A stretch of 35,986 bases of DNA from contig DBFBFY010000116.1 in assembly GCA_048201615.1 (NCBI GenBank), forward strand, positions 1-35,986, given 5' to 3'. This document shows positions 17,778 to 35,720 of the stretch, piece by piece. Each line of letters begins with the position of its first letter. The stretch's first letter is position 1. The notes beneath the pieces are model-generated. The model did not search any database. It was not told the DNA's origin and saw only the letters and a program-made list of their open reading frames with translations. The position numbers and the translations under genes were made by a program. This DNA is from Collinsella sp. GTDB taxonomy: Bacteria; Actinomycetota; Coriobacteriia; Coriobacteriales; Coriobacteriaceae.

Positions 17778-17790
17778 TAGAGGAGGACAG

Positions 17791-18404: not shown

Positions 18405-19409
18405 CTAACACAAATCGCGCACCGTATCGCCCTCTACAAGCACACCGGGGATCAGCATGTGCTCCACGCCAGACGCACCCCCATCGGCGCCGGCAATCTT
18501 GTCGACCGCCCACATGCCGACGCGCTTGTTGTCAAAGCGCACCGTGGTCAGGCGACGGTCGGGCACGATATCGCCCAGGCTGTCATCAACACCCACCACG
18601 CTCACGTCCTCGGGCACACGCCTTCCGCACGACTCGAGCCCGCGAATGCAGCCGTATGCCATGGCATCGTTGGAAGCATAAATGGCCGTACAGGTCGGAT
18701 CGTCCGCCAGAGCCTGACCGGCAGCATATCCGCTCTGTGCCGTCCAATCCCCACGGACGAGTCGCGGCGGCTCAATTCCATGCGCGCGCAATGTCTCGCG
18801 CCAGCCTTCCTCGCGCCGCATGCCCGAAAGCGAGCGCTCGGGACACGAGATAAAGTGCACGGTTTTGTGCCCCCGCCCCAGCAAGTACTCGACCACCTGG
18901 CGCGAGCAATCGAACTGGTCGTTATCGACCGTTGAACAGAGCGGGTGCTCCAGCATCGTAACGAGCACCGTCTGCATGCCGGGCAGCGGCTCGAAGGTGC
19001 CAAAGTCCGCCGGCATGCGATTCATGATCACGACCATGCCGTCTACCGGCAGCGCGCTCATGCGCGACGATGCGCTCTCGAGGGTATACGGATGCCCATC
19101 TACTTTAGTGAGGGTGATGGCATAGCCATGTTTGTCGGCCGCGGCGGCAAAGCCCTCCATACGGTCGAGGTTGCCGGTACCGGTAATGTTGAACATGGCG
19201 ACGCCGACGGTCTTAAACTTGCCACGGCGCAGCGATCGACCGGCAAAATTGGGGCGATACCCCAGCTCGCGCATGGCGGCACGCACGCGTTCCTTGGTCT
19301 CGGGGCGCACACTGGGCGAATCGTGCACGGTGCGCGAGACCGTCTGCTCCGAGACGCCCGCGAGGCGCGCCACGTCTTTGACGGATACCGATTTTTTAAC
19401 AGCGGCCAT
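18405..19409 (-). CDS. LacI-family regulator 1
   Basis: VKDVARLAGVSEQTVSR HTH, YRPNFAGRSL hinge and PEDVSVVGVDD. Confidence 0.95.
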   Translation of the reverse strand: MAAVKKSVSVKDVARLAGVSEQTVSRTVHDSPSVRPETKERVRAAMRELGYRPNFAGRSLRRGKFKTVGVAMFNITGTGNLDRMEGFAAAADKHGYAITLTKVDGHPYTLESASSRMSALPVDGMVVIMNRMPADFGTFEPLPGMQTVLVTMLEHPLCSTVDNDQFDCSRQVVEYLLGRGHKTVHFISCPERSLSGMRREEGWRETLRAHGIEPPRLVRGDWTAQSGYAAGQALADDPTCTAIYASNDAMAYGCIRGLESCGRRVPEDVSVVGVDDSLGDIVPDRRLTTVRFDNKRVGMWAVDKIAGADGGASGVEHMLIPGVLVEGDTVRDLC

Positions 19410-19423
19410 AGGTCGATCTTTCT

Positions 19424-19704
19424 ATGTCAACGATGCCATTGGTGGCACCCTACGCAGTCAAATGAAACGTCTTCAAGTATATCTAACGCCTCCCCCACCA
19501 TACGCTCACCACCCAAAACCTACCGTTCACCGACATTTTTGCTTCCCCGAACGGCTTTTGTCGCTCAAATGTTAACGTTGCCATTGTGCAAACACAGAGC
19601 CACCGGGCGGCTCAAACGTTTACGCGCAAGGAATCGACGGTCCACAGGCACAGGGGCCATCGGTTCGCGTCTTATTTTGTGTCGCAAAATGGCAACGTCA
19701 ACAT
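19424..19704. promoter_or_regulatory. Three LacI-type operators, module 1
   Basis: ATGTCAACGATGCCAT (19424), ATGTTAACGTTGCCAT (19569) and ATGGCAACGTCAACAT (19689): central-CG 16-mers. Confidence 0.7.
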
Positions 19705-19766
19705 TTTGGCAACCAAACGTCAAAAGCTACCATCGTTGCCAACCCACCGACTCTTAGGAGCTTTGC

Positions 19767-21533
19767 ATGGAGCAACTCATCGCCATCATCGAAAAGGGGC
19801 AGCCCTTTTTCAACGCGATCGCCCGCAACAAGTACCTCAAGGCGATCCGCGACGGTTTTATCTCCGTCATCCCCATCATCATCTTCTCGTCCATCTTCTG
19901 CCTGGTAGCCTCGGTTCCCAATATCTGGGGTTTCTACTGGCCCGATGACATCAACAACGCCCTATGGAAGTGCTACAACTACTCCATGGGCATCCTGGCC
20001 ATCGCCTGTGCCGCCACCACGGCCAAGCACTTCGCCGACGCTCAGAACCGCGATCTGCCCAAGAACAACCAGATCAACTTCATCTCGTGCATGTGCGCGG
20101 CCATCATCGGCTTCTTGCTCCTTTCGAGCGACACGATCGCCACGGACGCTGCCAGCGGCTTCAACACCACCTACCTTGGTTCCAAAGGCCTGCTGACCGC
20201 CTTTATCGCTGCGTTTGTGACCGGCATCATCTACAAGTTCTTCATTAAGCGCAACATCACCGTCAAGATGCCCGAGCAGGTTCCGCCCAACATCTCGCAG
20301 ACCTTTAAGGACATCATCCCCTTCTCCGTCTGCATCACCGTCTTTTGGGTCTTTGACATCGCCTTCCGCGCTGCTTTTGGCTTCTGCTTTGCCCAGGGCG
20401 TCATCCAAGTGTTCCAGCCCCTGTTCACCGCTGCCGATGGCTACATCGGCCTCGCTGTGATCTACGGCGCCATGAGCCTGTTCTGGTTCGTCGGCGTCCA
20501 CGGCCCCTCGATCGTCGAGCCCGCCATCGCCGCCGCCCTTGTTGCCAACATGACCGACAACCTGGCCGCATTCCAGGCTGGCCAGCACGCTTCCGCTGTC
20601 CTGACCCAGGGTGCCCAGTACTTCGTCGTCTGCATGGGCGGCACCGGCGCCACGCTCGTCCTGGTCTTTATGTTCTGCTTCCTGGCCAAGTCCCAGGAGA
20701 TGCGTGCCGTCGGTAAGGCCGCTATCGTTCCCGTGTGCTTTGCCGTCAACGAGCCGCTGCTGTTCGCCGCACCCATCGTGCTCAACCCCGTCTTCTTTGT
20801 CCCGTTTGTCTTTGCCCCGATCGCCAACATCTGGATCCTCAAGATCTTTATCGACTTCTTGGGCATGAACGGCTTTATGTACACCCTGCCCTGGACCGTC
20901 CCCGGCCCCATCGGTACCATCATGGGCCTGGGCTTCCAGCCGCTCGCCTTTGTGATGCTCGCCCTTATCCTGGTCGTCGACTTCGTTCTGTACTACCCGT
21001 TCTTCCGTGCCTATGACGCCCAGAAGTGCGCCGAGGAGGCCGAGATCTCCCAAGAGGAGCTCGCCGCCAAGAACGCCGAGAAGGCCGCCAAGCTCAACGA
21101 TGCCTTCCAGGGCAAGGCTGACGCCAAGAGCGTTGCCGCCGGCGCTGCTGCCGAGGCCGTGAAGGCCGACGCTCCCGCCGCTGTCGCCACTGAGACTACG
21201 ACCGCCAGCGACCTCAACGGCAAGCGCGTACTCGTGCTCTGCCAGGGTGGCGGTACCTCGGGCCTGCTCGCCAACGCGCTGGCCAAGGCCGCCAAGGAGC
21301 GCGGCATCAATCTTGAGACCGCTGCCGAGGCCTATGGCAACCACGTGGACATGCTCCCCGACTTCGATCTGGTCGTCCTGGCCCCGCAGGCCGCAAGCTA
21401 CCTGGCCGACCTGCAGAAGGACTGCGAGCGCGTGGGCAACAAGTGCGTCGCCTGCCGCGGTAAGCAGTACATCGAGCTTTCCCAGAACGGTGATAAGTCT
21501 CTCGCCTTCGTCTCCGAGCAACTCTCGAAGTAA
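19767..21533 (+). CDS. lacE: PTS lactose-family EIICB, paralog 1
   Basis: YLKAIRDGF, FWFVGVHGPSIV and MGGTGAT, NEPLLF, Ala-rich linker, EIIB VLVLCQGGGTSGLLA. Confidence 0.93.
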   Translation: MEQLIAIIEKGQPFFNAIARNKYLKAIRDGFISVIPIIIFSSIFCLVASVPNIWGFYWPDDINNALWKCYNYSMGILAIACAATTAKHFADAQNRDLPKNNQINFISCMCAAIIGFLLLSSDTIATDAASGFNTTYLGSKGLLTAFIAAFVTGIIYKFFIKRNITVKMPEQVPPNISQTFKDIIPFSVCITVFWVFDIAFRAAFGFCFAQGVIQVFQPLFTAADGYIGLAVIYGAMSLFWFVGVHGPSIVEPAIAAALVANMTDNLAAFQAGQHASAVLTQGAQYFVVCMGGTGATLVLVFMFCFLAKSQEMRAVGKAAIVPVCFAVNEPLLFAAPIVLNPVFFVPFVFAPIANIWILKIFIDFLGMNGFMYTLPWTVPGPIGTIMGLGFQPLAFVMLALILVVDFVLYYPFFRAYDAQKCAEEAEISQEELAAKNAEKAAKLNDAFQGKADAKSVAAGAAAEAVKADAPAAVATETTTASDLNGKRVLVLCQGGGTSGLLANALAKAAKERGINLETAAEAYGNHVDMLPDFDLVVLAPQAASYLADLQKDCERVGNKCVACRGKQYIELSQNGDKSLAFVSEQLSK

Positions 21534-21599
21534 GTAACGCTCAGGGCCAGCCGACCATCCAAGACCGGCTGGCCCTTCGATTTAGACGATTGGATCATC

Positions 21600-23039
21600 A
21601 TGTCCGTTAACCCTGCTAGCGTCACCAACCCGCCTACGCAGTTTCCCGAGGACTTTGTCTTTGGCGGCGCCACCGCTGCCTACCAGGTAGAGGGCGAGAC
21701 CCGCACCCACGGTAAGGGCAAGGTTGCCTGGGACGACTTCCTGGAGGCCCAGGGGCGCTTTTCCCCCGATCCCGCTTCGGACTTCTACAACCAGTACCCC
21801 GTCGACTTGGAGCTGTGCGAAGAGTTTGGCATCAACGGCATTCGCCTCTCCATCGCCTGGAGCCGCATCTTCCCCAACGGTACCGGCGAAATCAACCCCG
21901 AGGGCGTCCAGTTCTACCACGATCTCTTCGCCGAGTGCCATAAGCACCATGTTGAGCCGTTCGTCACGCTGCATCACTTTGACACGCCGCTTCCTCTCTT
22001 TGAGAAGGGCGACTTCCTCAACCGCGAGACCATCGACGCCTTTGTGGACTTTGCCACCTTCTGCTTTAAGGAGTACGCCGACCAGGTGACCTACTGGTTC
22101 ACCTTTAACGAGATCTGGGCCGACGCCTCCAACACCTACATCGAGGGCACCTTCCCCGGTGGCGTCAAGGCGCATCTTGCCGAGGCCTTCCAGTGCGAGC
22201 ACAACATGATGCTCGCCCACGCCAAGGCAGTGCTGGCCTTCCACAACGGCGGCTTTAAGGGCAAGATTGGCGTCATTCAGTCGCTGGAGTTTAAGTATCC
22301 GCTCAACGAGAACGACCCCGCCGACATCAAAGCCGCCAACAACGAGCACGTGCTGCAAAACCAGTTCTTGCTCGACGCCACCTTCCGCGGCGACTACGCG
22401 CCCGACACCCTCGAGTGCGCCAACCGCCTGGCCGCCGTCTCGGGCGGCACCATCGAGATCTTGGACGAGGATCTGGATATCATGCGCGAGGCCGCGCTCT
22501 ACAACGACTACCTGGGCGTTAACAACTACCAGTGCCGCTTCTTGAAGGCCTACGATGGCGAAAACGACCTGCACCACAACGGTACGGGAGAGAAGGGCAC
22601 CGGCCGCTGGCGCGTTAAGGGCATTGGCGAGCATGTGAACAAGCCTGGCATCCCCACCACCGACTGGGACTGGATCATCTATCCCGAGGGCCTGTTCGAT
22701 CTGCTCGTCTACATTAAGCAGCGCTACCCCAACTACAAGCAGATCTTCATCACCGAGAACGGCATGGGCTACAAGGACCCCTACAAGGACGGTTTTGTGG
22801 ACGACCAGCCGCGCATCGACTACATCGAGCAGCACCTGCGTTGGCTGCTCAAGGCCATGGAGGTGGGCGTCAACGTGGGCGGCTACTTCCTGTGGAGCCT
22901 GCAGGATCAGTTCTCCTGGACCAATGGCTACAACAAGCGTTACGGCTTCTTTTACGTTGACTTTGAAACCCAGAAGCGCACGCCCAAGGCAAGCGCCTAC
23001 TGGTACAAGCACGTGGCGCAGACCCGTCGTCTGGACTAG
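21600..23039 (+). CDS. lacG: 6-phospho-beta-galactosidase (GH1), paralog 1
   Basis: GGATAAYQ, TFNE, ITENG and DQFSWTNGYNKRYG (Ser-Trp galactose-6-P signature). Confidence 0.93.
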   Translation: MSVNPASVTNPPTQFPEDFVFGGATAAYQVEGETRTHGKGKVAWDDFLEAQGRFSPDPASDFYNQYPVDLELCEEFGINGIRLSIAWSRIFPNGTGEINPEGVQFYHDLFAECHKHHVEPFVTLHHFDTPLPLFEKGDFLNRETIDAFVDFATFCFKEYADQVTYWFTFNEIWADASNTYIEGTFPGGVKAHLAEAFQCEHNMMLAHAKAVLAFHNGGFKGKIGVIQSLEFKYPLNENDPADIKAANNEHVLQNQFLLDATFRGDYAPDTLECANRLAAVSGGTIEILDEDLDIMREAALYNDYLGVNNYQCRFLKAYDGENDLHHNGTGEKGTGRWRVKGIGEHVNKPGIPTTDWDWIIYPEGLFDLLVYIKQRYPNYKQIFITENGMGYKDPYKDGFVDDQPRIDYIEQHLRWLLKAMEVGVNVGGYFLWSLQDQFSWTNGYNKRYGFFYVDFETQKRTPKASAYWYKHVAQTRRLD

Positions 23040-23085
23040 TGGCTGGCGGGGTTGCCCGCTCACACAACCTGTCCCCATTTCTCAG

Positions 23086-23134
23086 CCGGGGGCGGCACGT
23101 CACACGGCGCGCCGCCCCCGGTCTTTTTGTTTTT
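23086..23134 (+). terminator. Intrinsic terminator after lacG1
   Basis: CCGGGGGCGGC...GCCGCCCCCGG followed by TCTTTTTGTTTTT. Confidence 0.8.
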
Positions 23135-23150
23135 GGGCTGGTCGGGAGCC

Positions 23151-23296
23151 GTTTGTCTCGATCTGTAACATCTAGCCGAGTTTTTTGGTCCTAGCTGTTA
23201 CAGATTGAGACGAACAGGATTGCTCTTTCCGAAGAATCTAAATCTGTAACACGTAGCCCGCTTTTGACCGTCTACCTGTTACAAATCGAGACAAAC
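23151..23296. repeat. ~80-bp palindromic repeat array A (2 units)
   Basis: ATCTGTAACA-N25-TGTTACA(G/A)AT at 23161 and 23242. Confidence 0.9.
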
Positions 23297-23306
23297 GGAG
23301 TAGGAC

Positions 23307-24335
23307 CTAACCCCGTATGTCCCTAACAGTCGAGCGTTCGACCAGCGTACTCGGCACATGAATCGCCTCGATAGACGAGCTCTCTCCAATCGCCGCCTCA
23401 AACGCAAGCTTACCGACACCGCGCAAATCAAATCGCAGCGTCGTCAGCCGATTGTGAGGAACAAGTCCCTCGAGTGCGTCGTCGATACCAACCACGCTCA
23501 CGTCGTCGGGCACGGACAGGCCCGCGTTCTCGAGCGCGGCGATAACGCCCAGCGCCATCTGGTCATTTGCCGCAAGCACGGCAGTCGGCGCCTGCGACCC
23601 GCCGGCAAGCACCTCGGCCGCAATCCGCTCGCCCATGGCGTACCCACTGTCCGCACTCCAATCGCCACGCAGCATCGGAGCGGCATCGACATGAGCACGA
23701 CCCAGCGTATCGCGCCAACCGGCCTCACGAAAACGCGAGGAAATCGAGTTTTCCGGACCCGCCACAAACCGCATATTCGAGTGACCATGTTCCAGCAGAT
23801 AATTGGTCAACAGCTCGCACGAACCATACTGGTCGGAGTCGATCGTCGTGCAGCGCGGATGCGCATACATGGACAGGATGACCGTTCGCACTCCCGGCTG
23901 GGGAACAAACTCCTCAAAATCGGGAGCCATGCGGTTCATGTTGAGAATCATGCCGTCGACGGGTCGCTCGACCATGCGGCGCGAGGCATCGGCAAGTGTA
24001 TAGGGCTTGTCGCCGCCCATCTCGATCATAGTGACGGCAAAATCGTGCTCGCGCGCCGCTTGCATGATACCCTCGAGCGTCGCCAGGTTACCGACACGTG
24101 TGATGTTGTACATGCACAGGCCAATAGAACGATACGACCCGCCGCGCAACGCCGCTCCAGCAAAATTGGGACGAAAGCCCAGCTCTTCCATGGCGGCCAG
24201 CACACGCTTGCGCGTCTTTTCCGTCACGTTGGGCATACCGTTGACCACGCGAGACACAGTCTGGCGGCTCACGCCAGCGAGCGCCGCAACCTCTGCCGCG
24301 CTCGCCGAATGACCATTCCTTGTCTGCTGAGCCAT
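23307..24335 (-). CDS. LacI-family regulator 2
   Basis: EVAALAGVSRQTVSR, FRPNFAG and PDDVSVVGIDD; probable ATG at 24335. Confidence 0.93.
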   Translation of the reverse strand: MAQQTRNGHSASAAEVAALAGVSRQTVSRVVNGMPNVTEKTRKRVLAAMEELGFRPNFAGAALRGGSYRSIGLCMYNITRVGNLATLEGIMQAAREHDFAVTMIEMGGDKPYTLADASRRMVERPVDGMILNMNRMAPDFEEFVPQPGVRTVILSMYAHPRCTTIDSDQYGSCELLTNYLLEHGHSNMRFVAGPENSISSRFREAGWRDTLGRAHVDAAPMLRGDWSADSGYAMGERIAAEVLAGGSQAPTAVLAANDQMALGVIAALENAGLSVPDDVSVVGIDDALEGLVPHNRLTTLRFDLRGVGKLAFEAAIGESSSIEAIHVPSTLVERSTVRDIRG

Positions 24336-24395
24336 GCCTTCCACGCTAACCTGCTTCCCAACTATTCCCCGCGCCCATGGCGCATCGTACATACA

Positions 24396-24565
24396 TCGAT
24401 AACGTGCTCATGATACCCGAGCCATATACCACAACATGAAAACTTCTGTCAATCAAAACCGCTTACCGAACAAATACAACCGTTCGCGGCTGTTTGAAGT
24501 TGTTTTGTTTCTATACATCCCAGCCGGATGTTAACGTGCTCATTGTCAAATGTTCACGTGCTCAT
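24396..24565. promoter_or_regulatory. Three LacI-type operators, module 2
   Basis: TCGATAACGTGCTCAT (24396), ATGTTAACGTGCTCAT (24528) and ATGTTCACGTGCTCAT (24550). Confidence 0.7.
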
Positions 24566-24685
24566 TTTGGTTCTAATCATTTTAAGATAGTGTTTATCGG
24601 GCTTTTTCACCGCTGAACGCTAACCAGGGAGCCTCCTGAGCGCAAACGCACAATATCGAACAGCGAGACGAGAGGGTGTATGCAT

Positions 24686-26128
24686 ATGTCTTTGCTAAAC
24701 CGCGTACAGCAGCTGCCGAAGGGCTTTGTTTGGGGCGCCGCAACCGCCGCGTACCAAACGGAAGGTTCCACGAAGGTGGCAGGCAAGGGTAAGACCATGT
24801 GGGACGATTACCTTGTCGCCCAGGGTCGCTTTTTGCCCGACCCGGCCAGTGATTTCTACAACCGCTACGAGGAGGATATCCGCCTTTCTGCCGAGCATGG
24901 ACTCAACGCCATCCGTGTGTCCATCGCCTGGACCCGCATCTTCCCCAACGGCGACGATGCCGAGCCCCTCGCCGAGGGCGTTAAGCACTACCACGAGCTG
25001 TTCGCCTGCTGCAAAAAGTATGGCGTCGAGCCCTATGTGTCCCTGCATCACTTTGACTCCCCCGCCGCCCTGTTCAACCAGGGCGACTGGCTCAACCGCA
25101 AGACCGTCGACGCCTATGTGCGCTATGCCGAGTTCTGCTTCCGCGAGTTCCGCGAGGTCAAGAATTGGTTCACCATCAACGAGCTCATCAGCCTCTCGCA
25201 CTCCCAATACATCCAAGGCAACTTCCCGCCCAACCATCACTTTGATGTGACGAGCGGCATCCAGAGCCAGCACAACGAGCTCGTTGCCCACGCCCGCGCC
25301 GTCAACCTGTATAAGGATCTTGACGAGACCGAGCACCTGGGCGGACGCATTGGCATGGTCAACGTCCTGACGCCGGCATATCCTGCCACAGACTCGCCCG
25401 CCGACCAGCACGCCGCCGACCTGTACAACGCCTTCTACACCGACTTCATCATGGACGGCGCCTTCCTGGGTCACTACTCCGCGCGCACCCTCTCACTCAT
25501 CAACGAGATTCTGCGTGCCAACAACGCCACGCTTACGGTTGAGGACAGCGACATGGAGGAGCTCGCCAAGGCGGCGCCCCGCAACGATATGTTCGGCCTC
25601 AACTACTATCAGTCGGCGTTTATCGCCGCCTACGATGGCGAGTCCACCAACAGCTTTAACGGCACCGGAGACAAGGGCACCTCGTGCTTTAAGTTTAAGG
25701 GCGTCGGGCAGCAGGTCGATATGCCGGGTATCCCCACCACCGACTGGGATTGGCTCATCTACCCGCAAGGCCTCTACGACACGCTCAAGCACATCAGCGC
25801 CACCTATCCCAACCTCCCCGTCATCTATATCACCGAAAACGGCCTGGGCCACAAGGACCCCGAGCCCGACGCAAACGGCATCGTCGCCGATCCCGAGCGC
25901 ATCGACTTTGTCGACCAGCACATGGAGAAGGTGCTCCGGGCGCGCGCCGAGGGCGTCGACGTCCAGGGCTACTTTATCTGGAGCCTGCAGGACCAATTCT
26001 CGTGGGCCAACGGCTATAACAAGCGCTACGGCCTGTTCTACATCGACTTCGACACGCAAAAACGCTACATCAAGCAGTCGGCACTCTGGTACAAGGAGCT
26101 CGCCGACACTATGGCGGACGCGCAGTAG
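24686..26128 (+). CDS. lacG: 6-phospho-beta-galactosidase (GH1), paralog 2
   Basis: WGAATAAYQ, TINE, ITENG and DQFSWANGYNKRYG. Start is 24686 or 24680. Confidence 0.92.
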   Translation: MSLLNRVQQLPKGFVWGAATAAYQTEGSTKVAGKGKTMWDDYLVAQGRFLPDPASDFYNRYEEDIRLSAEHGLNAIRVSIAWTRIFPNGDDAEPLAEGVKHYHELFACCKKYGVEPYVSLHHFDSPAALFNQGDWLNRKTVDAYVRYAEFCFREFREVKNWFTINELISLSHSQYIQGNFPPNHHFDVTSGIQSQHNELVAHARAVNLYKDLDETEHLGGRIGMVNVLTPAYPATDSPADQHAADLYNAFYTDFIMDGAFLGHYSARTLSLINEILRANNATLTVEDSDMEELAKAAPRNDMFGLNYYQSAFIAAYDGESTNSFNGTGDKGTSCFKFKGVGQQVDMPGIPTTDWDWLIYPQGLYDTLKHISATYPNLPVIYITENGLGHKDPEPDANGIVADPERIDFVDQHMEKVLRARAEGVDVQGYFIWSLQDQFSWANGYNKRYGLFYIDFDTQKRYIKQSALWYKELADTMADAQ

Positions 26129-26304
26129 CGCATCGCCTCGCTTTCCCCCGAGAGGGGAGCGGCCCTATGCGATACAAACCCAGCCGCTCCCCTCTCTCCC
26201 CCTGGGACCGACCCCGCCTGCACCCGGGCTTTTAGCAAGCGGGAGACCATATAGGTTTTCAACGTCCATGCCATTAAGATTTCATGCAAAGAGGAGCGTG
26301 AACT

Positions 26305-28065
26305 ATGGAATCGATCGTTAAGTTCTTGGAGAAAGGTCAGCCGTACTTCGACAAGGTCTCTAAGAACATCTACCTTCAGGCCATTAAAGACGGCTTTTTG
26401 GCAGCAATGCCCATCATCCTGTCTTCTTCTGTCTTCCTGCTTATTTCGACCCTGCCGGGCGTTGTCGCCACGGTCGGCGGCTTTACGCTGCCCGACTGGT
26501 GGAACGTCGACGTCGTGAACTTCTGCAACAAGGTTTACAGCTTCACGATGGGCGTCGTGGGCATCATGGTCGCCGGCACCACCGCAAGCGCGCTGACCGG
26601 CTCCAAGAACCGCCGCATGCCTGCCGGCAAGGCCATCAACGCCACGAGCACCATGGTCGCCGCCATGTGCGCTATGCTCATCTTGGCCGTTACCCAGACG
26701 AGTGCCAAGATCGACGGCGCCGATGTCTCGGTGTTCTTTACCGACAACATGGGCACCAAGGGCCTACTGAGCTCCTTTGTCGCCGCATTTGCCACGGTCA
26801 ACATCTATGCCTTCTGCATTAAGCGAGACATCACCATCAAGCTGCCCAAAGAAGTCCCCGGCGCCATCGCCCAGAACTTCCGCGACATCTTCGCCTTCAG
26901 CTTCTCCATCCTGTTTGTCGCCGTCATCGACGTTATCTGCCGCACCTGCTTGGCCGTCCCGTTTGCCAACGTCATCTCCACGCTGGTGAGCCCGCTGTTC
27001 GCCGCTGCCGATTCCTACGCCGGCCTCGCCCTCATCTGGTTCATGATCCCGCTGTTCTGGTTCATGGGCATCCACGGCCCCTCGGTCGTTAAGCCTGCCC
27101 TCAACGCCGCGCTGTTTGGCAACATCACCACCAACCTCGCCACGCTGCAGGCCGGCGGTCACCCCGCCCTCGCCCTGACCGAGAACTTCGGTAACTACAT
27201 CGGCGAACTCGGCGGCACCGGCGCCACGTTCATTGTCCCGATCATCTTCCTGCTCTTTATGCGCTCCAAGCAGCTCAAGGCCGTCGGCAAAGCCTCTGTC
27301 GTACCCGTGATGTTCGCCGTCAACGAACCGCTGCTGTTCGCCGCGCCCATCATCCTCAACCCGTACTTCCTGATCCCGTTCCTGTTTGCCCCCGTGGCCA
27401 ACGTCCTCATTGGTAAGTTCTTCATCGACTTTTTGGGCATGAACGGCTTTATCTATGCCATGCCGTGGGCACTCCCCGGACCGATCGGCACCTTCATCGA
27501 CACCAACTTCCAGCCGATCTCTCTGGTCCTGGTTGTCGTCCTGCTAGTCGTTGACTTCTTAATCTACTACCCGTTCTGCAAGGCCTACGACAACGTCCTG
27601 TGCAAGCAGGAGGCCGAGACCCTGGCCGAAGAAGAGGCCGAGGAGACCAAGGCCGTCAAGACCGCTGCCGCCCCCGCCGTTGAGGCTCCTGTTGTCGAGA
27701 CCGCTTCTGCCACTGAGGCCTCCGCAGCTCCGTCCGCCCTTAAGGGCAAGGATCTGAGGGTTCTGGTTCTGTGCGCTGGCGCCGGCACCTCTGCGCTGCT
27801 CGCCAACGCGCTTAAGGAAGGCGCCGACGAGCTGGGCATCGACATTACCGCCAACGCCGGTGCCTACGGCAGCCACTACGCCATCATGGACCAGTACAAC
27901 GTCATCGTCCTGGCTCCGCAGGTTCGCACCTATTACAACGAGATGAAGGCCGACACCGACCGCCTGGGCATCACGCTGCTGTCGCCCAAGGGCAAACAGT
28001 ACATCGACCTCACTAAGGATCCCAAGGGTGCCGTCGCCTGGATCGAGGAAAACCTCGAGGCATAA
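26305..28065 (+). CDS. lacE: PTS lactose-family EIICB, paralog 2
   Basis: YLQAIKDGF, FWFMGIHGPS, LGGTGAT and EIIB VLVLCAGAGTS. Confidence 0.92.
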   Translation: MESIVKFLEKGQPYFDKVSKNIYLQAIKDGFLAAMPIILSSSVFLLISTLPGVVATVGGFTLPDWWNVDVVNFCNKVYSFTMGVVGIMVAGTTASALTGSKNRRMPAGKAINATSTMVAAMCAMLILAVTQTSAKIDGADVSVFFTDNMGTKGLLSSFVAAFATVNIYAFCIKRDITIKLPKEVPGAIAQNFRDIFAFSFSILFVAVIDVICRTCLAVPFANVISTLVSPLFAAADSYAGLALIWFMIPLFWFMGIHGPSVVKPALNAALFGNITTNLATLQAGGHPALALTENFGNYIGELGGTGATFIVPIIFLLFMRSKQLKAVGKASVVPVMFAVNEPLLFAAPIILNPYFLIPFLFAPVANVLIGKFFIDFLGMNGFIYAMPWALPGPIGTFIDTNFQPISLVLVVVLLVVDFLIYYPFCKAYDNVLCKQEAETLAEEEAEETKAVKTAAAPAVEAPVVETASATEASAAPSALKGKDLRVLVLCAGAGTSALLANALKEGADELGIDITANAGAYGSHYAIMDQYNVIVLAPQVRTYYNEMKADTDRLGITLLSPKGKQYIDLTKDPKGAVAWIEENLEA

Positions 28066-28092
28066 GACGCTGACGCCACCTGCCGCTCGCAG

Positions 28093-28142
28093 AAAAAAAA
28101 ATGGCCCGTGCATCGATGCGTGATGCGCGGGCCATTTTGTTT
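28093..28142. terminator. Bidirectional intrinsic terminator
   Basis: A-run, then ATGGCCCGTGCATC...GATGCGCGGGCCAT, then TTTGTTT. Confidence 0.75.
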
Positions 28143-28161
28143 AGACCGCACCCGTCCTCCT

Positions 28162-28465
28162 GTTCATCTTAATCTGTAACATCTAGCCGAGTTTTTGGGT
28201 CCCAGCTGTTACAGATCGAGGTGAACGCACAGGCCAAGCCAAAAATCTCAATCTGTAACATGTAGAGCGCTTTTGACCGCTTAGATGTTACAGATCGAGA
28301 CAAACAGATGGGTCAATCCAATCAATCTAGATCTGTAACACCTGGCTGGTCATTTCACTCCTAACTGTTACAGATCGAGACAAACGGAATAAGCCGGGCC
28401 GAATTGTCTAAATCTGTAACATCTAGCCGAGTTTTCGGGTCCCACCTGTTACAGATTTAGACGAG
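28162..28465. repeat. ~80-bp palindromic repeat array B (4 units)
   Basis: ATCTGTAACA-N25-TGTTACAGAT at 28172, 28251, 28331 and 28412. Confidence 0.92.
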
Positions 28466-28479
28466 CAGGCCGAGCACGT

Positions 28480-29490
28480 CTACGCCCGCAGATCCCTTAC
28501 GCTGGAACGCTCGACCAACACGCCCGAGACGAGCGTACGGCTTCTGGAGCTCGGGGCTTCCAGACCTGCGACGACCTCGTTAAGCGCACGGATGCCCAGC
28601 TCGCGGTGGCGAAACTTCACCGACGTCAGAATCGAGTTGGGAATCGTCTTGTAGAGCTCATCGTCGAAGCCGATCACGGACACGTCGTCGGGCACACTGA
28701 GCCCTTTGTCACGTAGAGCCATCATCACGCCGTTTGCCATGCAGTCGTTAGCAGCGAGGACCGCCGTGCAATCGGGCTTATCGGCAAGCACAAGGCCCGC
28801 GGCATAGCCACTATCCGCATTCCAATCGCCTTGCAGAGGCTCGGGCGGCTCAATGCCACGTGCCTCGAGTGCCGCTCGCCAACCTTTCATACGGCACTGG
28901 CTCGACAGTGATTCTTTCTTACCAGAGACGAAGTACACGTTCTTGTGCCCGTGGTTCAAGAAGTACTCGCACGCCATGCGCGCGCCGCCCTCTTGGTCGT
29001 CACTGACGGTAGAGCAGGTAGGATGTTCCATCGGTGTGATAATCACCGTCTTGAGGTCTTTCGGCGCCTCAAAGGTATCAAAGTCATCGACCATCTGGCG
29101 CAGGTTGAAAATCATGCCGTCGACGGGGAGCTGCGACATTCTACGCGCCGCTTCGGCAAGGGTCATCTTCTCCCCCGCCCGCTTTTTGATCATCGTAAGA
29201 GCAAAGCCTCGCTCTTCGGCGGCATCGGCGATACCGTCGATCATGTCCACGGCACCGCCCGACAAGTGGAACAGCACGACGCCGATGCACCCGTAACGGC
29301 CCAACTTGAGCGAACGCGCGGCAAAGTTGGCTCGAAACCCGAGCGCCTCCATGGCCGAATGAACCTTATCGCGTGTCGACTCTCGCACGCTATCGGGCTC
29401 GTTAATCACGCGCGAAACCGTCTTGAGAGAAACACCAGCGGCAATCGCCACATCATTCATTGAGACATTTTTCTTGTCCATCGTTGCCAC
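28480..29490 (-). CDS. LacI-family regulator 3
   Basis: MNDVAIAAGVSLKTVSR, FRANFAARSL and PDDVSVIGFDD; GTG start with GGAG upstream. Confidence 0.94.
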   Translation of the reverse strand: MATMDKKNVSMNDVAIAAGVSLKTVSRVINEPDSVRESTRDKVHSAMEALGFRANFAARSLKLGRYGCIGVVLFHLSGGAVDMIDGIADAAEERGFALTMIKKRAGEKMTLAEAARRMSQLPVDGMIFNLRQMVDDFDTFEAPKDLKTVIITPMEHPTCSTVSDDQEGGARMACEYFLNHGHKNVYFVSGKKESLSSQCRMKGWRAALEARGIEPPEPLQGDWNADSGYAAGLVLADKPDCTAVLAANDCMANGVMMALRDKGLSVPDDVSVIGFDDELYKTIPNSILTSVKFRHRELGIRALNEVVAGLEAPSSRSRTLVSGVLVERSSVRDLRA

Positions 29491-29620
29491 TGCTTCTCCA
29501 GTCGGTTTTACATCGCTTGTTTTTGCGTTCTAGCATACACTACCTGCCTGACTGATAAATCAACCGTTTACCGAACAATATCGACCGCTCACCCGTATAT
29601 CCTTGTTGCTCTTCCAAAAA

Positions 29621-29663
29621 TGTCTTACGTTGTCATTAACGAAATGACAACGTTGTCATTTCG
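29621..29663. promoter_or_regulatory. LacI-type operators, module 3
   Basis: TGTCTTACGTTGTCAT (29621) and the perfect palindrome CGAAATGACAACGTTGTCATTTCG (29640-29663). Confidence 0.75.
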
Positions 29664-29764
29664 CAATGCCTTCCTTAAGCAGGAAGGTTTCCGGGCAGTC
29701 CTGACCATCCATCGACGACCAGTTCCATCCACATGCATCGCGCATCAAGTAGCAAAGGAGCTCT

Positions 29765-31543
29765 ATGGACGCCATCGTAAAGATGCTCGAAAAGCATCAG
29801 CCGTTCTTTGAGAAGATCTCGAGGAACATCTACCTCCAGGCTATTAAGGACGGATTCCTTGGGTGCATGCCCATCGTCCTCACCTCTTCGATCTTTCTGC
29901 TCATTGCCACCCTTCCCGGCGTAGTCGGCATCACGCTGCCCCAGCCGCTCATCGACTGGTGCAACAAGCTGTACAACTTCACCATGGGCGTCATGGGCAT
30001 CATGGTCGCCGGCACCACTGCCAAGAACTTTACGGCTTCCATGAACCGTCGCATGCCCGCCGGCAAGGTGCTCAACGACGGCTCCACCATGGTGGCCGCC
30101 CAGTGCAGTATGCTTTTGCTCGCCGTTACGCAGTTCACCACCAAGTTCAACGGCTCCGAGCTTTCGGTCTTCGACTGCACCAGCATGGGCACGCGCGGTC
30201 TGTTCTCGGCCTATATCGCCGCGTTCATCACCGTGTGGGTCTACAAATTCTGCGTCTCTCGCGATCTGACCATTAAGCTGCCCAAGGAGGTCCCGGGCGC
30301 CATCGCTCAGAACTTCCGTGACATCATCCCCTTTGGCGGCGCCGTCATCATCTGCGGCATCATCGATGTCGTCGTGCGCAACCTCATGGGCGTTCCGTTC
30401 TCCGAGCTGCTCATCAAGCTGCTCTCCCCGCTCTTCACTGCAGCAGAGACCTACCCCGGACTCATCCTTATTCAGGCAGCCACCGCGTTCTTCTGGTTCA
30501 TCGGTGTCCACGGTCCTTCGATTGTCCAGCCGGGCATCGACCCCATCCGTCTTGCCAACCAGGCCGAGAATCTGCAGGTTCTGCTGGCCGGTGGTCACCC
30601 CGCCCATTCCCTCACCTTCAACATGTCGCTCGTGGGTGAGTTCGGCGGCACCGGTGCCACGTTCATCGTGCCGCTTCTGCTGATTCTCTTTATGAAGTCC
30701 AAGCAGCTCAAAGCCGTCGGTAAGGCCTCGATTGTTCCTGTTGCCTTCGCCGTCAACGAACCGCTGCTCTTTGGCGCGCCGATGATCCTTAACCCCTACA
30801 TGCTCATCCCCTTTGTTGCCGCCGGCTGCGTCAACGTGAGTGTTGCCAAGTTCTTTATCGATAACGTGGGCATGAACGGCTTCTCCTTCGTGGTGCCTTG
30901 GGCTACCCCTGCCCCCATCGGCATCTTCATCACCACGAACTTCCAGCTTATCGCCCTGGTATTTGTCGCGATCATCATCTTGCTGGACGCCATCATCTAC
31001 CTACCGTTCTTGAAGGCATACGATAAGCTGCTCTGCGACCAGGAGGCCGAGCGCGCCGCCGAGCTGGGTCTTGAGTCCGATGGTGCTGCCACCATCGCCG
31101 CCAGCACCTCTGCGCCCACTGTCGAACAGACTACCGCTTCCGTCGAGCCGACCGCCGCTGCCGCCGACAGCGAGCCTGTCGCCGATCAGCCCGAGCCCGC
31201 AGCCGACGCATCCGCTAAGAAGGATGTCGACGGTCTGAAGGTCCTCGTCCTGTGCGCCGGCGCCGGCACCTCTGCCATGCTTGCCAACGCCATCAAGGAA
31301 GGTGCTGCGCAGACCGGAGAGAACATCGCTTCCTCCGCAGGCGCTTATGGTCAGCACACTGCCATCATGGATCAGTACGACGTTATCGTGCTTGCCCCGC
31401 AGGTCCGTAGCTACTACAACGACATGAAGGCCGACACCGATCGTCTGGGCATTAAGCTGCTCGCCCCGCGCGGCAAGGAATATATCGACCTTACTCGCGA
31501 CCCCGCTGGCGCCATTAAGTGGCTCCGCGAGAACCTCGACTAG
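29765..31543 (+). CDS. lacE: PTS lactose-family EIICB, paralog 3
   Basis: YLQAIKDGF, FWFIGVHGPSIV, FGGTGAT and EIIB VLVLCAGAGTS. Confidence 0.92.
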   Translation: MDAIVKMLEKHQPFFEKISRNIYLQAIKDGFLGCMPIVLTSSIFLLIATLPGVVGITLPQPLIDWCNKLYNFTMGVMGIMVAGTTAKNFTASMNRRMPAGKVLNDGSTMVAAQCSMLLLAVTQFTTKFNGSELSVFDCTSMGTRGLFSAYIAAFITVWVYKFCVSRDLTIKLPKEVPGAIAQNFRDIIPFGGAVIICGIIDVVVRNLMGVPFSELLIKLLSPLFTAAETYPGLILIQAATAFFWFIGVHGPSIVQPGIDPIRLANQAENLQVLLAGGHPAHSLTFNMSLVGEFGGTGATFIVPLLLILFMKSKQLKAVGKASIVPVAFAVNEPLLFGAPMILNPYMLIPFVAAGCVNVSVAKFFIDNVGMNGFSFVVPWATPAPIGIFITTNFQLIALVFVAIIILLDAIIYLPFLKAYDKLLCDQEAERAAELGLESDGAATIAASTSAPTVEQTTASVEPTAAAADSEPVADQPEPAADASAKKDVDGLKVLVLCAGAGTSAMLANAIKEGAAQTGENIASSAGAYGQHTAIMDQYDVIVLAPQVRSYYNDMKADTDRLGIKLLAPRGKEYIDLTRDPAGAIKWLRENLD

Positions 31544-31619
31544 TTTCCTCCCTCTGATGGTGCCTGGATCCCCAGTTCGGGCACCTCTCCCTATTCGTAT
31601 TCCACAGAAAGGATGACTC

Positions 31620-33041
31620 ATGACCAACCCCATGCAGTTCCCCGACGGCTTTGTGTTTGGCGGCGCCACCGCTGCTTACCAGGTTGAGGGCGAGACCCGT
31701 ACGCACGGCAAGGGCAAAGTGCCCTGGGACGATTTCCTGGCTGCTCAGGGTCGCTTCTCCCCCGACCCCGCAAGCGATTTCTACAACAAGTACCCGGTCG
31801 ATATCGACCTGTGCCAGCGCTTCGGCATCAACGGTATCCGTGTCTCCATCGCTTGGAGCCGCATCTTCCCCAATGGCACCGGCGAGATTAACCCCGAGGG
31901 CGTCGCTTTCTATCACGAGCTTTTCGCCACCTGCAATAAGGCCGGCGTTATCCCCTATGTCACGCTCGATCACTTTGATACACCTGAGGCCTTTTACCAG
32001 AACGGCGGCGAGGGTTTCCTGACGCGCACGACGATCGACGCCTTTGTCGAGTACGCCAAGTTCTGCTTTGCCGAGTTCACCGAGGTCAAGCACTGGTTTA
32101 CCTTTAACGAGATTCCCGCGACCGCCGAGGGCAGCTTTATCGTCGGCAACTGGCCGCACGGCGAGAAGTATCGCCTGGACAAGGCTTTCCAGCTCATGCA
32201 CAACATGATGGTGGCCCACGCCAAGGCCGTCGTCGCCTTCCATGAGGGTGGCTTTGAGGGCGAGATCGGCATTGTCCAGAACCTAGAGCCCAAGTATCCC
32301 CTCGACCCCAACAACGCCGCCGACTGCGAGGCAGCTCGCATGGCCGACGTCATCAACAACCGCTGGGTACTCGACGCCACCTTCCGCGGCCACTATGCAG
32401 CCGACACCATGGAGGCTGCGACCAAGCTGGCCCATATCGCCGGCGGCGAGCTCGACGTCCGCGACGAGGACATCGCCGCGCTGACCGCCGCGCTCCCCTA
32501 CAACGATTGCTTGGGCGTCAACACCTACAAGTGCCAGTTCCTGCGTGCCGCCGAGGGCGAAAACGACATCAACCACAATGGCACCGGCGACAAGGGCTCC
32601 TCGCGCTGGTTCCTCAAGGGCGTGGGCGAGTCATGCGTGCGCGAAGGCGTACCCACCACCGATTGGGACTGGATCATCTATCCCGAGGGCCTGTACGATC
32701 TGCTGCTGCGAATTAAGAACGATTACCCCAACTACAAGAAGATCTACATTACCGAGAACGGCATGGGCTATAAGGACGACTTTGAGGACGGCTTTATCGA
32801 CGACGCCCCTCGCATCGACTACATGCGTCAGCATCTCGCATGGATTCTCAAGGCAATCGACGGCGGCGTGAACGTCGACGGTTACTTCGTGTGGTCGCTG
32901 CAGGACCAGTTCTCCTGGACCAACGGCTATAACAAGCGCTATGGCCTGTTCTACATCGACTTTGAGACCCAGAAGCGCTATCCCAAGGCGAGCGCGTACT
33001 GGTACAAGAACGTCGCGGAGACCGGCCTGCTCATGGCCTAG
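31620..33041 (+). CDS. lacG: 6-phospho-beta-galactosidase (GH1), paralog 3
   Basis: GGATAAYQ, TFNE, ITENG and DQFSWTNGYNKRYG. Confidence 0.93.
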   Translation: MTNPMQFPDGFVFGGATAAYQVEGETRTHGKGKVPWDDFLAAQGRFSPDPASDFYNKYPVDIDLCQRFGINGIRVSIAWSRIFPNGTGEINPEGVAFYHELFATCNKAGVIPYVTLDHFDTPEAFYQNGGEGFLTRTTIDAFVEYAKFCFAEFTEVKHWFTFNEIPATAEGSFIVGNWPHGEKYRLDKAFQLMHNMMVAHAKAVVAFHEGGFEGEIGIVQNLEPKYPLDPNNAADCEAARMADVINNRWVLDATFRGHYAADTMEAATKLAHIAGGELDVRDEDIAALTAALPYNDCLGVNTYKCQFLRAAEGENDINHNGTGDKGSSRWFLKGVGESCVREGVPTTDWDWIIYPEGLYDLLLRIKNDYPNYKKIYITENGMGYKDDFEDGFIDDAPRIDYMRQHLAWILKAIDGGVNVDGYFVWSLQDQFSWTNGYNKRYGLFYIDFETQKRYPKASAYWYKNVAETGLLMA

Positions 33042-33063
33042 TTTCCGCCGCATACCCCCTGTC

Positions 33064-33110
33064 GGCCGCATACGAATCCCTCCACGGGTTCGCATGCGGC
33101 CTTTTTGTTT
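33064..33110 (+). terminator. Intrinsic terminator after lacG3
   Basis: GGCCGCATACGAATCC...GGGTTCGCATGCGGCC-TTTTTGTTT. Confidence 0.8.
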
Positions 33111-33131
33111 TGGCTCGGACCTGAGCGGGCC

Positions 33132-33274
33132 GTTTGTCTCAATCTGTAACATCTAGCAGGGATTTTCGGCCCTAGCTGTTACAGATCAAGACAAACAAAA
33201 CGCCCGAGCAGAAATATCTCAATCTGTAACACATAGCCCACTTTCGACCGTCTACCTGTTACAGATCGAGACAA
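33132..33274. repeat. ~80-bp palindromic repeat array C (2 units)
   Basis: ATCTGTAACA-N25-TGTTACAGAT at 33142 and 33222. Confidence 0.9.
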
Positions 33275-33326
33275 TAAGATAGTCAAATCCGAACTTTCCA
33301 AGCAGTTATGAACCATGGTTTCCAGT

Positions 33327-33401
33327 TTTCGGTATCACGAACATACTTTCGGTATCATTTAATGATATTATGATATCGAAAGTATGTTCGTGATACCGAA
33401 A
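33327..33401 (+). promoter_or_regulatory. 75-bp palindromic promoter/operator of the fic gene
   Basis: 32-bp arms (31/32 complementary), four TTTCGRTATCA boxes, central TGaTATTAT extended -10; abuts RBS AAGGAG. Confidence 0.75.
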
Positions 33402-33409
33402 GGAGCCGC

Positions 33410-34642
33410 ATGCGCCAGTTCGATTACACCACAGTCCCAGCGGAACTCGAAGCAACTCCAATCACCAACCTCCTCCTCTCGATACGCGAGCATAAAGGCC
33501 GTCAGCTTGCTCTGAGTCAAGTCAAACCCGAGCTTCTATCGTCCCTAATGGAGGAGGCTAAGATCCAAAGCACCCGATCCTCCAACGGACTTGAAGGAAT
33601 TGTTACCACCCAAAAAAGACTCAAAGCGATTATGGCGTATTCCGCCAAGCCAAGCTCCCGCGCAGAGGAAGAAATCGCTGGATACCGAGATGTGCTGTCG
33701 CTTATTCACGAGCAACACGATTCCATTCCCGTAACGCCATCGGTCATTCTGCAGTTGCATCGTGACCTCATGGCGCACACGGCAATCTCGTATGGAGGCC
33801 ATTGGAAAGATGGCGATAACGAAATCGTCTCCATTGACGATCAAGGTAATCGATTTGTGCGCTTTAGGCCCCCTTCGGCTCTAGCAACCCCGGGACTTAT
33901 TAAAGAAGCCTGCCAGTCCCTCAACGATGCTTTATCTTGCCAAGTTTGCGATCCCCTCCTTATATCGCTCCGCTTTATCTTCGATTTTGTTAGCATTCAT
34001 CCCTTCAACGATGGCAATGGCAGGATGAGTCGGCTCCTTACAACGCTGCTGCTCGAAAAGACTGGATACGACGTTGCGCGTTACATCAGCATCGAACGAC
34101 TTATTGAAGACAACAAAGCGCTTTACTACAACGCTCTCGCTGCAAGCTCCACTGGATGGAATGAAAATCAAAACACCGAAGTACCCTTTATCCGTTTCAT
34201 GCTCGGAACAACCCTGGCCGCCTACCGACAGCTCGAGCAGCGTACCTTAATTGAATCAAGCACTCGTCCCATGTCGAAGCAAGCGCGCATCGCCGTTCTA
34301 TTTCAACAGAGACCCGGCGTCATTAAGAAATCCGACATCCGATCCAACTGCCCCGATATCAGCGAGGTTACCGTTAAACGAACCCTCGGTCAGCTTGTTA
34401 GTTGCAGCGCAATCGAAAAAACAGGAGCGGGTCGTTCGACGGGCTACATACTCAAAGACGTCCATGCTCTAGAACTATTCTTGCAATCCGCAATACCCGA
34501 TAGCGAGGCCGCAATAACAAAAGAGGCTCCAAAGGATAAGCTCCTTGAACGTATAAACCACGCCGAGGATGAAAGCAGAGAGGAGCTCTATGAAGACTAC
34601 GATTCATTCTCAAGGGACATAAAGACAAAATACGGAGTCTAG
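33410..34642 (+). CDS. Fic-domain protein with C-terminal winged-HTH
   Basis: Canonical HPFNDGNGRMSR motif, N-terminal STRSSNGLEG, C-terminal ISEVTVKRTL...IEKTGAGRSTGY. Visibly lower GC than neighbours. Confidence 0.93.
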   Translation: MRQFDYTTVPAELEATPITNLLLSIREHKGRQLALSQVKPELLSSLMEEAKIQSTRSSNGLEGIVTTQKRLKAIMAYSAKPSSRAEEEIAGYRDVLSLIHEQHDSIPVTPSVILQLHRDLMAHTAISYGGHWKDGDNEIVSIDDQGNRFVRFRPPSALATPGLIKEACQSLNDALSCQVCDPLLISLRFIFDFVSIHPFNDGNGRMSRLLTTLLLEKTGYDVARYISIERLIEDNKALYYNALAASSTGWNENQNTEVPFIRFMLGTTLAAYRQLEQRTLIESSTRPMSKQARIAVLFQQRPGVIKKSDIRSNCPDISEVTVKRTLGQLVSCSAIEKTGAGRSTGYILKDVHALELFLQSAIPDSEAAITKEAPKDKLLERINHAEDESREELYEDYDSFSRDIKTKYGV

Positions 34643-34750
34643 TCATATCCCAGAATAGCCTCATCCTTGTTGCCCAAAATTATTTGCGCGTCAACGTGAA
34701 GCGGTAATCCCCGCGCCGACAGGGGGCAGAAGTATCGCCTGCAGCGCTTG

Positions 34751-35515: not shown

Positions 35516-35720
35516 GATGAATCCTCGCCGTTCTATGCGTGCATATCATTCAAACAGTAACGAACAAATTGTATCAGACCCGTGCGCGTCAAAAATGAAC
35601 GCCCGCACAGCTCCAATCATCACTTTTTTGAGAAAAATACCCCTGCTTTAGTGGGGTGTAGTGATAATCTCGCCTGTTCGCGCTACAGTTTGTCGGAAAT
35701 ACCTCGATGTTAGGAACCAA

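Follow-up and report, generated by a model that had tools for sequence, protein, structure and literature searches.

The stretch of DNA analysed here (the window) is the 35,986-nt contig C116 of a Collinsella sp. assembly (1.98 Mb in 195 contigs, estimated to be 86.5% complete). It carries a lac locus of three modules, each with a LacI-type regulator, a phosphotransferase system (PTS) EIIC-EIIB gene and a glycoside hydrolase family 1 (GH1) gene, and each followed, past its terminator, by an array of palindromic units. These units, picked out in an earlier reading of the bare sequence (the original prediction), are the subject of this work. The layout of the locus, with genes assigned by Pfam, is as follows.

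18405..23039: module 1, with LacI 18405-19409 (-), PTS EIIC-EIIB 19767-21533 (+) and GH1 21600-23039 (+)
23085..23134, +: intrinsic terminator of the module 1 PTS-GH1 operon (RNA fold -36.8 kcal/mol, z -6.0, then a T-run)
23151..23301, no strand: array 1, two units with cores at 23161-23205 and 23242-23286, with arm extensions, between the module 1 GH1 gene and the 3' end of the module 2 LacI gene
23307..28065: module 2, with LacI 23307-24392 (-), GH1 24680-26128 (+) and PTS EIIC-EIIB 26305-28065 (+)
28098..28141, +: intrinsic terminator of the module 2 GH1-PTS operon (RNA fold -31.1 kcal/mol, z -6.5)
28162..28470, no strand: array 2, four units (28172-28216, 28251-28295, 28331-28375, 28412-28456), between the module 2 PTS gene and the 3' end of the module 3 LacI gene
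28480..33041: module 3, with LacI 28480-29490 (-), PTS EIIC-EIIB 29765-31543 (+) and GH1 31620-33041 (+)
33064..33110, +: intrinsic terminator of the module 3 PTS-GH1 operon (RNA fold -26.8 kcal/mol, z -5.6)
33131..33276, no strand: array 3, two units (33142-33186, 33222-33266), between the module 3 GH1 gene and the Fic gene, at the left edge of a species-variable segment
33410..34642, +: Fic-domain gene, in the segment from array 3 to the DeoR gene, for which several alternative contents exist
34751-35515, -: DeoR gene, to the right of the variable segment

The three terminators were seen by folding, a consensus terminator scan having missed them on account of its loop-length limit. Each array starts 17-30 nt past a terminator hairpin with its T-run, so that the arrays do lie outside the ordinary terminators, as had been predicted. 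Searching the window for ATCTGTAACA-N25-TGTTACAGAT with up to two mismatches returned eight matches, at 23161, 23242, 28172, 28251, 28331, 28412, 33142 and 33222, of which seven were exact and one, at 23242, carried a single mismatch (TGTTACAAAT); 100 dinucleotide-preserving shuffles of the window gave no match at all (mean 0, maximum 0). Start-to-start periods are 81 bp in array 1, 79, 80 and 81 bp in array 2 and 80 bp in array 3, and the hairpins of array 1 fold with z values of -6 to -7 on both strands. The eight positions, the 25-nt spacing and the lone mismatch of the original prediction were all recovered in this search.

A logo built from 359 unique units (those of the own genome and of loci L001-L135) gave the consensus RTCTCRATCTGTAACA-nnTAG-n6-TTT-n7-CTAnn-TGTTACAGATYGAGAY, in which the arms are nearly invariant in sequence. 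The arm extensions that had been described are likewise present: TCTC(A/G) and its mirror, which lie outside the search pattern, are 98-100% conserved, and the TCT at -4 to -2 is retained in 355-359 of the 359 units, a figure free of ascertainment bias because these positions are absent from the pattern. The outermost GTTTG/CAAAC is weakly conserved. Inside the hairpin, past a 2-nt mismatch, stands a conserved TAG, mostly preceded by C to give CTAG. Folded as a single strand, a unit forms a stem of 16-20 bp, then the 2-nt mismatch, 3 further bp and a ∼15-nt loop; z is -5 to -8 whichever strand is folded, and the DNA folds reach -15 to -20 kcal/mol. Along an array the arms alternate, separated in turn by 25 and ∼15 nt (35 nt if reckoned between the 10-nt arm cores). 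Apart from TAG/CTA, mirror positions of the core are complementary at or below the chance level; no compensatory pairing or inner-stem covariation was found in the core, the pairs of highest mutual information being neighbours rather than stem partners, and the mean pairwise distance among 379 unique cores was 13.0 of 25, as against 12.96 for random draws from the column frequencies. The arms are thus conserved as sequence and not merely as structure, while the core is free except for its length and three small motifs. Near-invariant arms, fixed spacing and the scarcity of decayed units (∼4, against 46 intact ones in the own genome) indicate selection on arms and spacing, which would be most simply explained by a sequence-specific protein reader. 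To this extent the pattern does point to recognition by a protein, as the original prediction had it.

Across the own genome, a search allowing spacers of 20-30 nt and up to two mismatches found 46 units in 20 arrays of one to four units on 15 contigs, the reversed pattern giving none. The spacer measures 25 nt in 45 of the 46 units and 26 nt in the other, and all 26 distances between neighbours within an array are 79-81 bp; the period that had been read from the window, and the near-fixed length of its otherwise variable cores and linkers, therefore hold genome-wide. The claim that arrays occur only at the three module boundaries is correct inside the window and fails outside it, where 17 further arrays lie elsewhere in the genome. 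All 20 arrays sit between predicted genes, one of them overlapping a predicted gene start by 10 nt. Their neighbours, for the most part housekeeping genes, include glutamate synthase, Nramp, glycogen phosphorylase (GlgP), a MalK-like ATPase, Dxs, pantothenate kinase (CoaX), aconitase, a P-type ATPase, a DEAD helicase, an M16 peptidase and 5-formyltetrahydrofolate (FTHF) cyclo-ligase, as well as accessory genes (an MFS transporter, a GmrSD restriction enzyme and a 2208-aa BspA-type leucine-rich repeat (LRR) protein). The flanking genes are convergent in five cases, tandem in seven and divergent in three, one side being unknown in five, and the orientation of the central T-run is mixed within seven of the 20 arrays. 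One further stretch, C31 (L140) 1-7208, resembles the lac locus in its layout: three arrays with common core types, within 7.2 kb, separate an MFS transporter, a small open reading frame (ORF) and a GmrSD-type restriction gene.

Such hairpins might act at the RNA level, as processed hairpin RNAs (a possibility raised in the original prediction), as stabilisers of mRNA 3' ends or as secondary terminators. Their predicted stability, their position downstream of operons in the window and the bridging or coverage of array 1 by contigs of three RNA libraries (X1 record 3, X3 record 17, X12 record 7) are all compatible with this, although such contigs show neither ends nor strands and may stem from carried-over DNA. 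Arms conserved as sequence with no compensatory changes, and a core free of any pairing constraint, speak for something else, as do the mixed orientation of units and the three arrays between divergent genes; the window arrays, moreover, stand behind strong terminators. Rfam gave no match over the window at the gathering threshold and, at E<=1 over 23100-33300, two matches, neither of them in an array. We therefore regard an RNA-level element as improbable, the proposal of processed hairpin RNAs being weakened above all by mixed orientation and lack of covariation.

Units with at most one mismatch were present in 350 of 369 sampled genomes of the genus Collinsella, at 25-80 copies in most and at 1-4 copies in four genomes, and were not found at this threshold in 29 genomes from five other genera of the same family. 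A scan for the exact pattern in one genome per species returned at least 135 loci, and nearly all of the 80 titled ones among the matches listed are Collinsella. In an order-level scan of 100 genomes (18 specified bases, up to three mismatches), many matches were obtained only within the genus, in seven of its 13 sampled members; genomes elsewhere gave at most five matches, near the control level. The sole exception in that scan is a single clear unit with one mismatch in another family of the order (G505:C4:30094-30136), and a record titled Acutalibacteraceae (L040) has two units; both cases may reflect contamination, mis-binning or transfer. Within the genus, no units were detected in the DNA-divergent genomes G409, G410 and G419, and the half-complete genomes G415 and G425 still yielded 21 and 43 units, in arrays of up to eight. 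A palindrome scan (9-mer arms, gaps of 10-40 nt, at least four recurrences) found no analogous family in 400 kb, about a fifth, of the unit-free congener G044; the same scan over 400 kb of the own genome recovered the unit family together with a second one. At the spacer between MalK and GlgP, the best GlgP matches in unit-free congeners are 42-43% identical and, at this identity, are probably paralogues. The unit family is restricted to one clade of the genus Collinsella. No description of it was found in the literature on repetitive, inverted or miniature repeats of Collinsella, supplements lying outside the scope of that search, and the candidate-RNA tables of PMC8040213 might list the hairpin among 250 'palindromic' motifs. 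It is apparently undescribed, but ordinary in type, akin to the REPINs (hairpin-forming doublets of repetitive extragenic palindromic, or REP, sequences) and the bacterial interspersed mosaic elements (BIMEs).

Another repeat, a highly conserved 33-nt hairpin, CCACCACAAAGG-N9-CCTTTGTGGTGG, has its loop in either orientation and 34 copies in the own genome, among them window 7712-7744 and 8422-8454, which bracket an HD-domain gene, and C18:2382 and 2752, C67:3331, 10351, 13000 and 16030, C110:4832 and C165:12741. Several copies lie 25-90 bp from unit arrays, and they flank the C18 array on both sides; the hairpin appears to combine the roles of bidirectional terminator and dispersed repeat. A third palindromic repeat, ∼75-100 bp long and likewise intergenic, lies at C52 (L141) 13966-14065 (DNA fold -29 kcal/mol); BLAST gives 27 hits to it within the own genome and a large number among relatives, and ARAGORN reports no tRNA there.

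We then compared the lac locus between species, using window 18300-35900 as query against 60 genomes of the genus and mapping 14 orthologous loci. Four sites recur as ends of alignment pieces: array 1, array 2, the end of array 3 and position ∼34742. Module 2 is present in five of the 14 loci (G153, G184, G236, G403, G328); it is absent, with modules 1 and 3 in place, from five others (G430, G438, G150, G424, G416), and four have module 1 alone (G110, G186, G437, G310). Loci lacking module 2 show a single chimeric array, the left flank of which resembles that of array 1 and the right flank that of the last unit of array 2. The stretch from array 3 to DeoR measures 0.74 kb in G153, holds Fic (1.4 kb) in the own genome, G236, G184 and G430, and elsewhere is filled by other DNA (2-14 kb); every extra module on the right of array 3 has its own array at its end. 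The modules held in common are collinear in all 14 loci, so that shuffling is not indicated, and they were not seen at other loci. Hence the idea that arrays are points at which modules are added, deleted or shuffled survives in its first part, since module number varies and both module 2 breakpoints fall in arrays, and not in its last. About 100 bp past the Fic stop codon, window 34742/34743 is a recurrent insertion point in its own right, at which several species have at least 4.3-4.6 kb of extra DNA. A partial second copy resembling DeoR is part of it, G430 having two matches to window 34752-35147.

The lac-locus arrays have a few core types in common and all run in one orientation, as expected if they exchange by homologous recombination, and this likeness supplies the homology for deletion. 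The array-free half of the window (1-18300) shows at least six recurrent breakpoints in 40 genomes, two of which (7696; 8435-8471) coincide with the 33-nt hairpin copies at 7712 and 8422. Breakpoints are just as common at array-free sites, other hairpins included, as at arrays, and, as terminator-distal spacers both tolerate insertions and house arrays, the coincidence of arrays with breakpoints is confounded.

Comparison across relatives took in five array-bearing loci and one control stretch. The spacer between the M16-peptidase and FTHF-ligase genes (C110) contains 0, 1 or 2 units among 27 loci of different species, and the difference between one and two units is exactly one 81-bp period between two left arms, an in-register change as expected from slippage or unequal crossing-over; arrays thus change by whole periods of 80-81 bp. 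A HicA/HicB toxin-antitoxin cassette (∼750 bp, assigned by Pfam; L197:2246-2834 in G406) is polymorphic between species in this spacer: judged by spacer length it is present in 14 of the 27 loci, where it directly follows a copy of the 33-nt hairpin next to the unit and has a hairpin of its own at its end. At the MalK/GlgP spacer (C52), 18 of 25 relatives have the two flanks side by side on a single contig with no added DNA, and alignments always break inside the array, the position of which is stable while its content varies. Three states were found at C67. In G097 and G236 the site is empty and bears one 33-nt hairpin; G430 and G360 have the hairpin, three units and a second hairpin copy; and the own genome, G150 and others add to this arrangement a 12.4-kb island, the junction of which lies ∼40 nt past the right side of the last unit. 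The array was acquired here as a block of ∼340 bp along with the second copy of the neighbouring hairpin and, of the two loci (C110 and C67) examined for this, C67 has its array bounded by the two hairpin copies and not by a short duplication. The island itself (L142, ∼3640-16010), absent from many genomes of the genus, encodes the 2208-aa BspA-type LRR/Ig-like surface protein, an 821-aa protein with no Pfam match and a LuxR-type regulator, and holds two further unit arrays.

The original prediction had gone on to propose a repeat-delimited cassette system. In integron-like terms, the unit would be an attC-like site at which a recombinase acting in trans inserts, excises and shuffles modules. 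Conserved arms around unique cores do recall the diversity of attC sites; both breakpoints of the module 2 indel lie in arrays, the alternative modules right of array 3 each bring their own terminal array, and arrays are enriched near contig ends of this metagenome-style assembly. Arrays also stand at stable housekeeping loci, however, shared modules are collinear throughout and never found at another locus, breakpoints are equally frequent where there are no arrays, and the islands at C67 and C110 join beside units or at the other hairpin rather than within a unit. Tandem units with no gene between them, in both orientations within one array, do not follow attC logic either. As had been stated, there is no recombinase among the window genes; five tyrosine-recombinase (PF00589) hits were obtained in this fragmented assembly, on C78, C179, C167, C93 and C45, none of which is an array-bearing contig. 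With a genome-wide family, stable flanks at C52, array-free breakpoints and collinear modules, a dedicated cassette system is not needed, and we consider site-specific cassettes very improbable. Scarcely more probable, in our judgement, is the broader proposal that the units are recognition sites of a sequence-specific protein and the arrays active boundaries at which operon-sized accessory modules (sugar modules, Fic, the restriction gene, the surface-protein island) are gained and lost. Such boundaries would be functionally analogous to attC sites or to CALINs (clusters of attC sites without integrase), but would act on multi-gene modules; integrons are not known in Actinomycetota.

Alternatively, the 65-bp unit could be a miniature inverted-repeat transposable element (MITE), that is a non-autonomous transposon with the 20-bp arms as terminal inverted repeats, mobilised in trans by an insertion sequence (IS) transposase and built into arrays by nested or adjacent insertion. 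The layout is that of terminal inverted repeats, G430 and G360 have the C67 array while G097 and G236 lack it, and the unit in G505 is a true, single one in another family. Yet no full-length element with unit ends was found, the search of relatives being non-exhaustive, no orphan arm in the own genome adjoins a transposase (all seven are decayed units or chance matches), and no short target duplication was seen at C110 or C67, where gain took the form of an in-register period and of a ∼340-bp block, respectively. The saturated cores give no sign of a recent burst. On balance, a MITE origin appears unlikely. Nor do the ends of candidate mobile genes resemble the arms, whether those of an IS110-family element or those of genes related to RAYTs (REP-associated tyrosine transposases). 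The IS110-family element, in the window at 11291-12899 (DEDD_Tnp_IS110 and Transposase_20, ORF 11431-12558), occurs once in the own genome, and relatives have it at different positions with 97-99% identity; a link to the units was rejected, the element having ends unrelated to the arms and no unit nearby. Two RAYT-like Y1 transposase genes, each with a C-terminal extension of ∼100 aa, were identified in the own genome.

C62:4350-5195 (L136): RAYT-like Y1 transposase gene
C114:217-1017 (L137): RAYT-like Y1 transposase gene

Against NF047646, with its cut-off of 80 bits, these two Y1_Tnp genes fall short, at 65.3 and 44.7 bits. Unrelated inverted repeats of ∼23 bp, 12-mers of which recur 4-6 times in the genome, enclose the C62 gene in the manner of a TIRtron (see below). 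The RAYT-like family occurs in 359 of the 369 genomes of the genus, unit-free congeners such as G002, G008 and G013 included, and in 18 of the 29 sister-genus genomes, all of them unit-free; it was not found (E<=1e-5) in the unit-rich genomes G262, G303 and G346.

Two features of the array-free half of the window stand apart from these questions: a Rho factor gene with a long N-terminal extension (857 aa; window 1910-4483) and, upstream of the PTS/GH1 modules, tagatose-pathway genes for a PfkB kinase, an aldose epimerase and two LacA/B isomerase subunits (window 13180-16273).

Taken together, the results make it likely that the units form an interspersed palindromic, REPIN/BIME-like family of one Collinsella clade and not a private cassette system, a family probably read by a protein and serving passively as a substrate for recombination. 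Its members share one layout (two inverted arms of 16-20 bp around a fixed 25-bp spacer, single or in head-to-tail arrays of 80-bp period, between genes), and arrays occupy conserved intergenic positions at which they are sometimes present and sometimes absent between orthologous sites, whole periods being gained or lost. On this reading the arms would be kept by selection because a sequence-specific protein reads them, recognising either the hairpin or two half-sites in duplex DNA that flank a bendable T-tract. Arrays would grow and shrink by slippage or unequal crossing-over between identical arms, and similar arrays after neighbouring operons would amount to portable homology: ordinary homologous recombination between two of them could delete or duplicate the operon-sized module in between, which may be how module 2 comes and goes. 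The arrays would stand at module boundaries because terminator-distal spacers accumulate this family along with other hairpin repeats. The original prediction had held that copies scattered after terminators genome-wide and not enriched at indel breakpoints, together with a module number constant across strains, would make the units ordinary repeats of this kind; scattered copies beside housekeeping genes were indeed found, and module number is not constant across species.

Several observations weigh against the REPIN/BIME-like interpretation. A contig end is no more than 650 bp away for eight of the 20 arrays, where 12.8% would be expected (p = 0.002); this excess fits strain-variable DNA beside arrays, although repeats can also break assemblies. 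Accessory DNA is found at units or within ∼100 bp of them at three loci (lac, C110 and C67) and, in view of this and of the contig-end excess, an active role in integration is conceivable. The junction left by module 2 fits a homologous and a site-specific crossover alike. No protein partner emerged from the RAYT-like, recombinase and IS candidates examined: neither units nor arms lie beside either RAYT-like gene in the own genome, and a RAYT was rejected as the mobiliser on this ground and for want of co-distribution. With ∼45 copies, the family is smaller than classical REP families. Finally, its cores are saturated within a single clade, a state that a burst followed by drift fits only if the burst long preceded the radiation of the clade.

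In light of published repeat families, the closest likeness is to the REPINs of Pseudomonas fluorescens SBW25, described as extragenic inverted doublets of fixed spacing that form a long hairpin, mostly single, with some ordered head-to-tail arrays reaching four units or more, the doublet being better conserved than its spacer; they adjoin RAYT genes, by which they are thought to be mobilised (Bertels & Rainey 2011, PMC3116915). The Collinsella units share the inverted doublet at fixed distance, the extragenic position, the tandem arrays and the better conservation of arms than of spacer. They are an extragenic palindrome in 46 copies, which is low for the class, and differ in that the arm is not a small palindrome and the copies number ∼45 rather than hundreds. 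Tandem SBW25 units, as presented there, are near-identical, flanks included, whereas adjacent Collinsella units differ in cores and linkers; the RAYT-like genes of Collinsella carry other inverted repeats and show no co-distribution. Of the hallmarks of REP/REPIN-RAYT systems, a RAYT flanked by units, its co-distribution with them and a terminal GTAG/CGTC tag were not found in our material. REPs bearing that tag are reported as stem-loops that occur as singletons, dimers and tandem clusters, and in TIRtrons a RAYT gene stands between long inverted repeats that bear no relation to REPs (Di Nocera et al. 2013, PMC3733652). The C62 RAYT-like gene looks like such a TIRtron; the TAG of the Collinsella units is internal and mostly CTAG, unlike the terminal GTAG given there. 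The words Collinsella, Coriobacter and Actinobacteria do not occur in the main text of PMC3733652.

BIMEs of Escherichia coli consist of alternating REP or palindromic units with fixed linker motifs (PMC2817692). They resemble the Collinsella arrays in their regular alternation of palindromic units, their intergenic position, often after operons, and their variable copy number, and the alternation at a period of 79-81 bp in all 26 neighbour pairs is a BIME-like geometry; the sequences are unrelated, the host belongs to the Actinomycetota, and arm conservation is far stricter here, with no compensatory stem variation. E. coli BIMEs are bound by integration host factor (IHF), gyrase and DNA polymerase I (Pol I), and REPs are known sites of rearrangement and of IS insertion. 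attC sites stand at the ends of cassettes; each is an imperfect palindrome in which the outer boxes are conserved and the centre is variable and unique. The Collinsella units share with them the imperfect palindrome, the conserved outer boxes, the variable centre and the position at module ends; unlike attC sites or CALINs, they come with no integron integrase, match the R-box only in AAC/GTT and form gene-free tandem units in both orientations, and the modules that they adjoin are multi-gene, collinear and equipped with their own regulators. MITEs such as the Correia elements of Neisseria are short and intergenic with inverted ends; neither a target duplication (at C110 and C67) nor a parent IS was found for the Collinsella units. 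The mycobacterial interspersed repetitive units (MIRU) of variable-number tandem repeat (VNTR) typing are interspersed tandem units of strain-variable copy number and, unlike the Collinsella units, are not palindromic.

Among the commensals abundant in the human gut are Collinsella aerofaciens and its relatives, whose carbohydrate-use loci vary greatly. In 350 of the 369 sampled species-level genomes, a strictly conserved repeat marks intergenic sites, some 20 per genome, and its near-invariant arms beside random cores imply a reader in the cell. The arrays split assemblies and alignments, their variation in copy number may provide typing markers, and at least one deletion or insertion of operon size involves them. 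If the reader were a recombinase, the family would represent a new route of modular genome change; if it were a nucleoid or topology protein, the arrays would be an actinobacterial counterpart of BIME biology.

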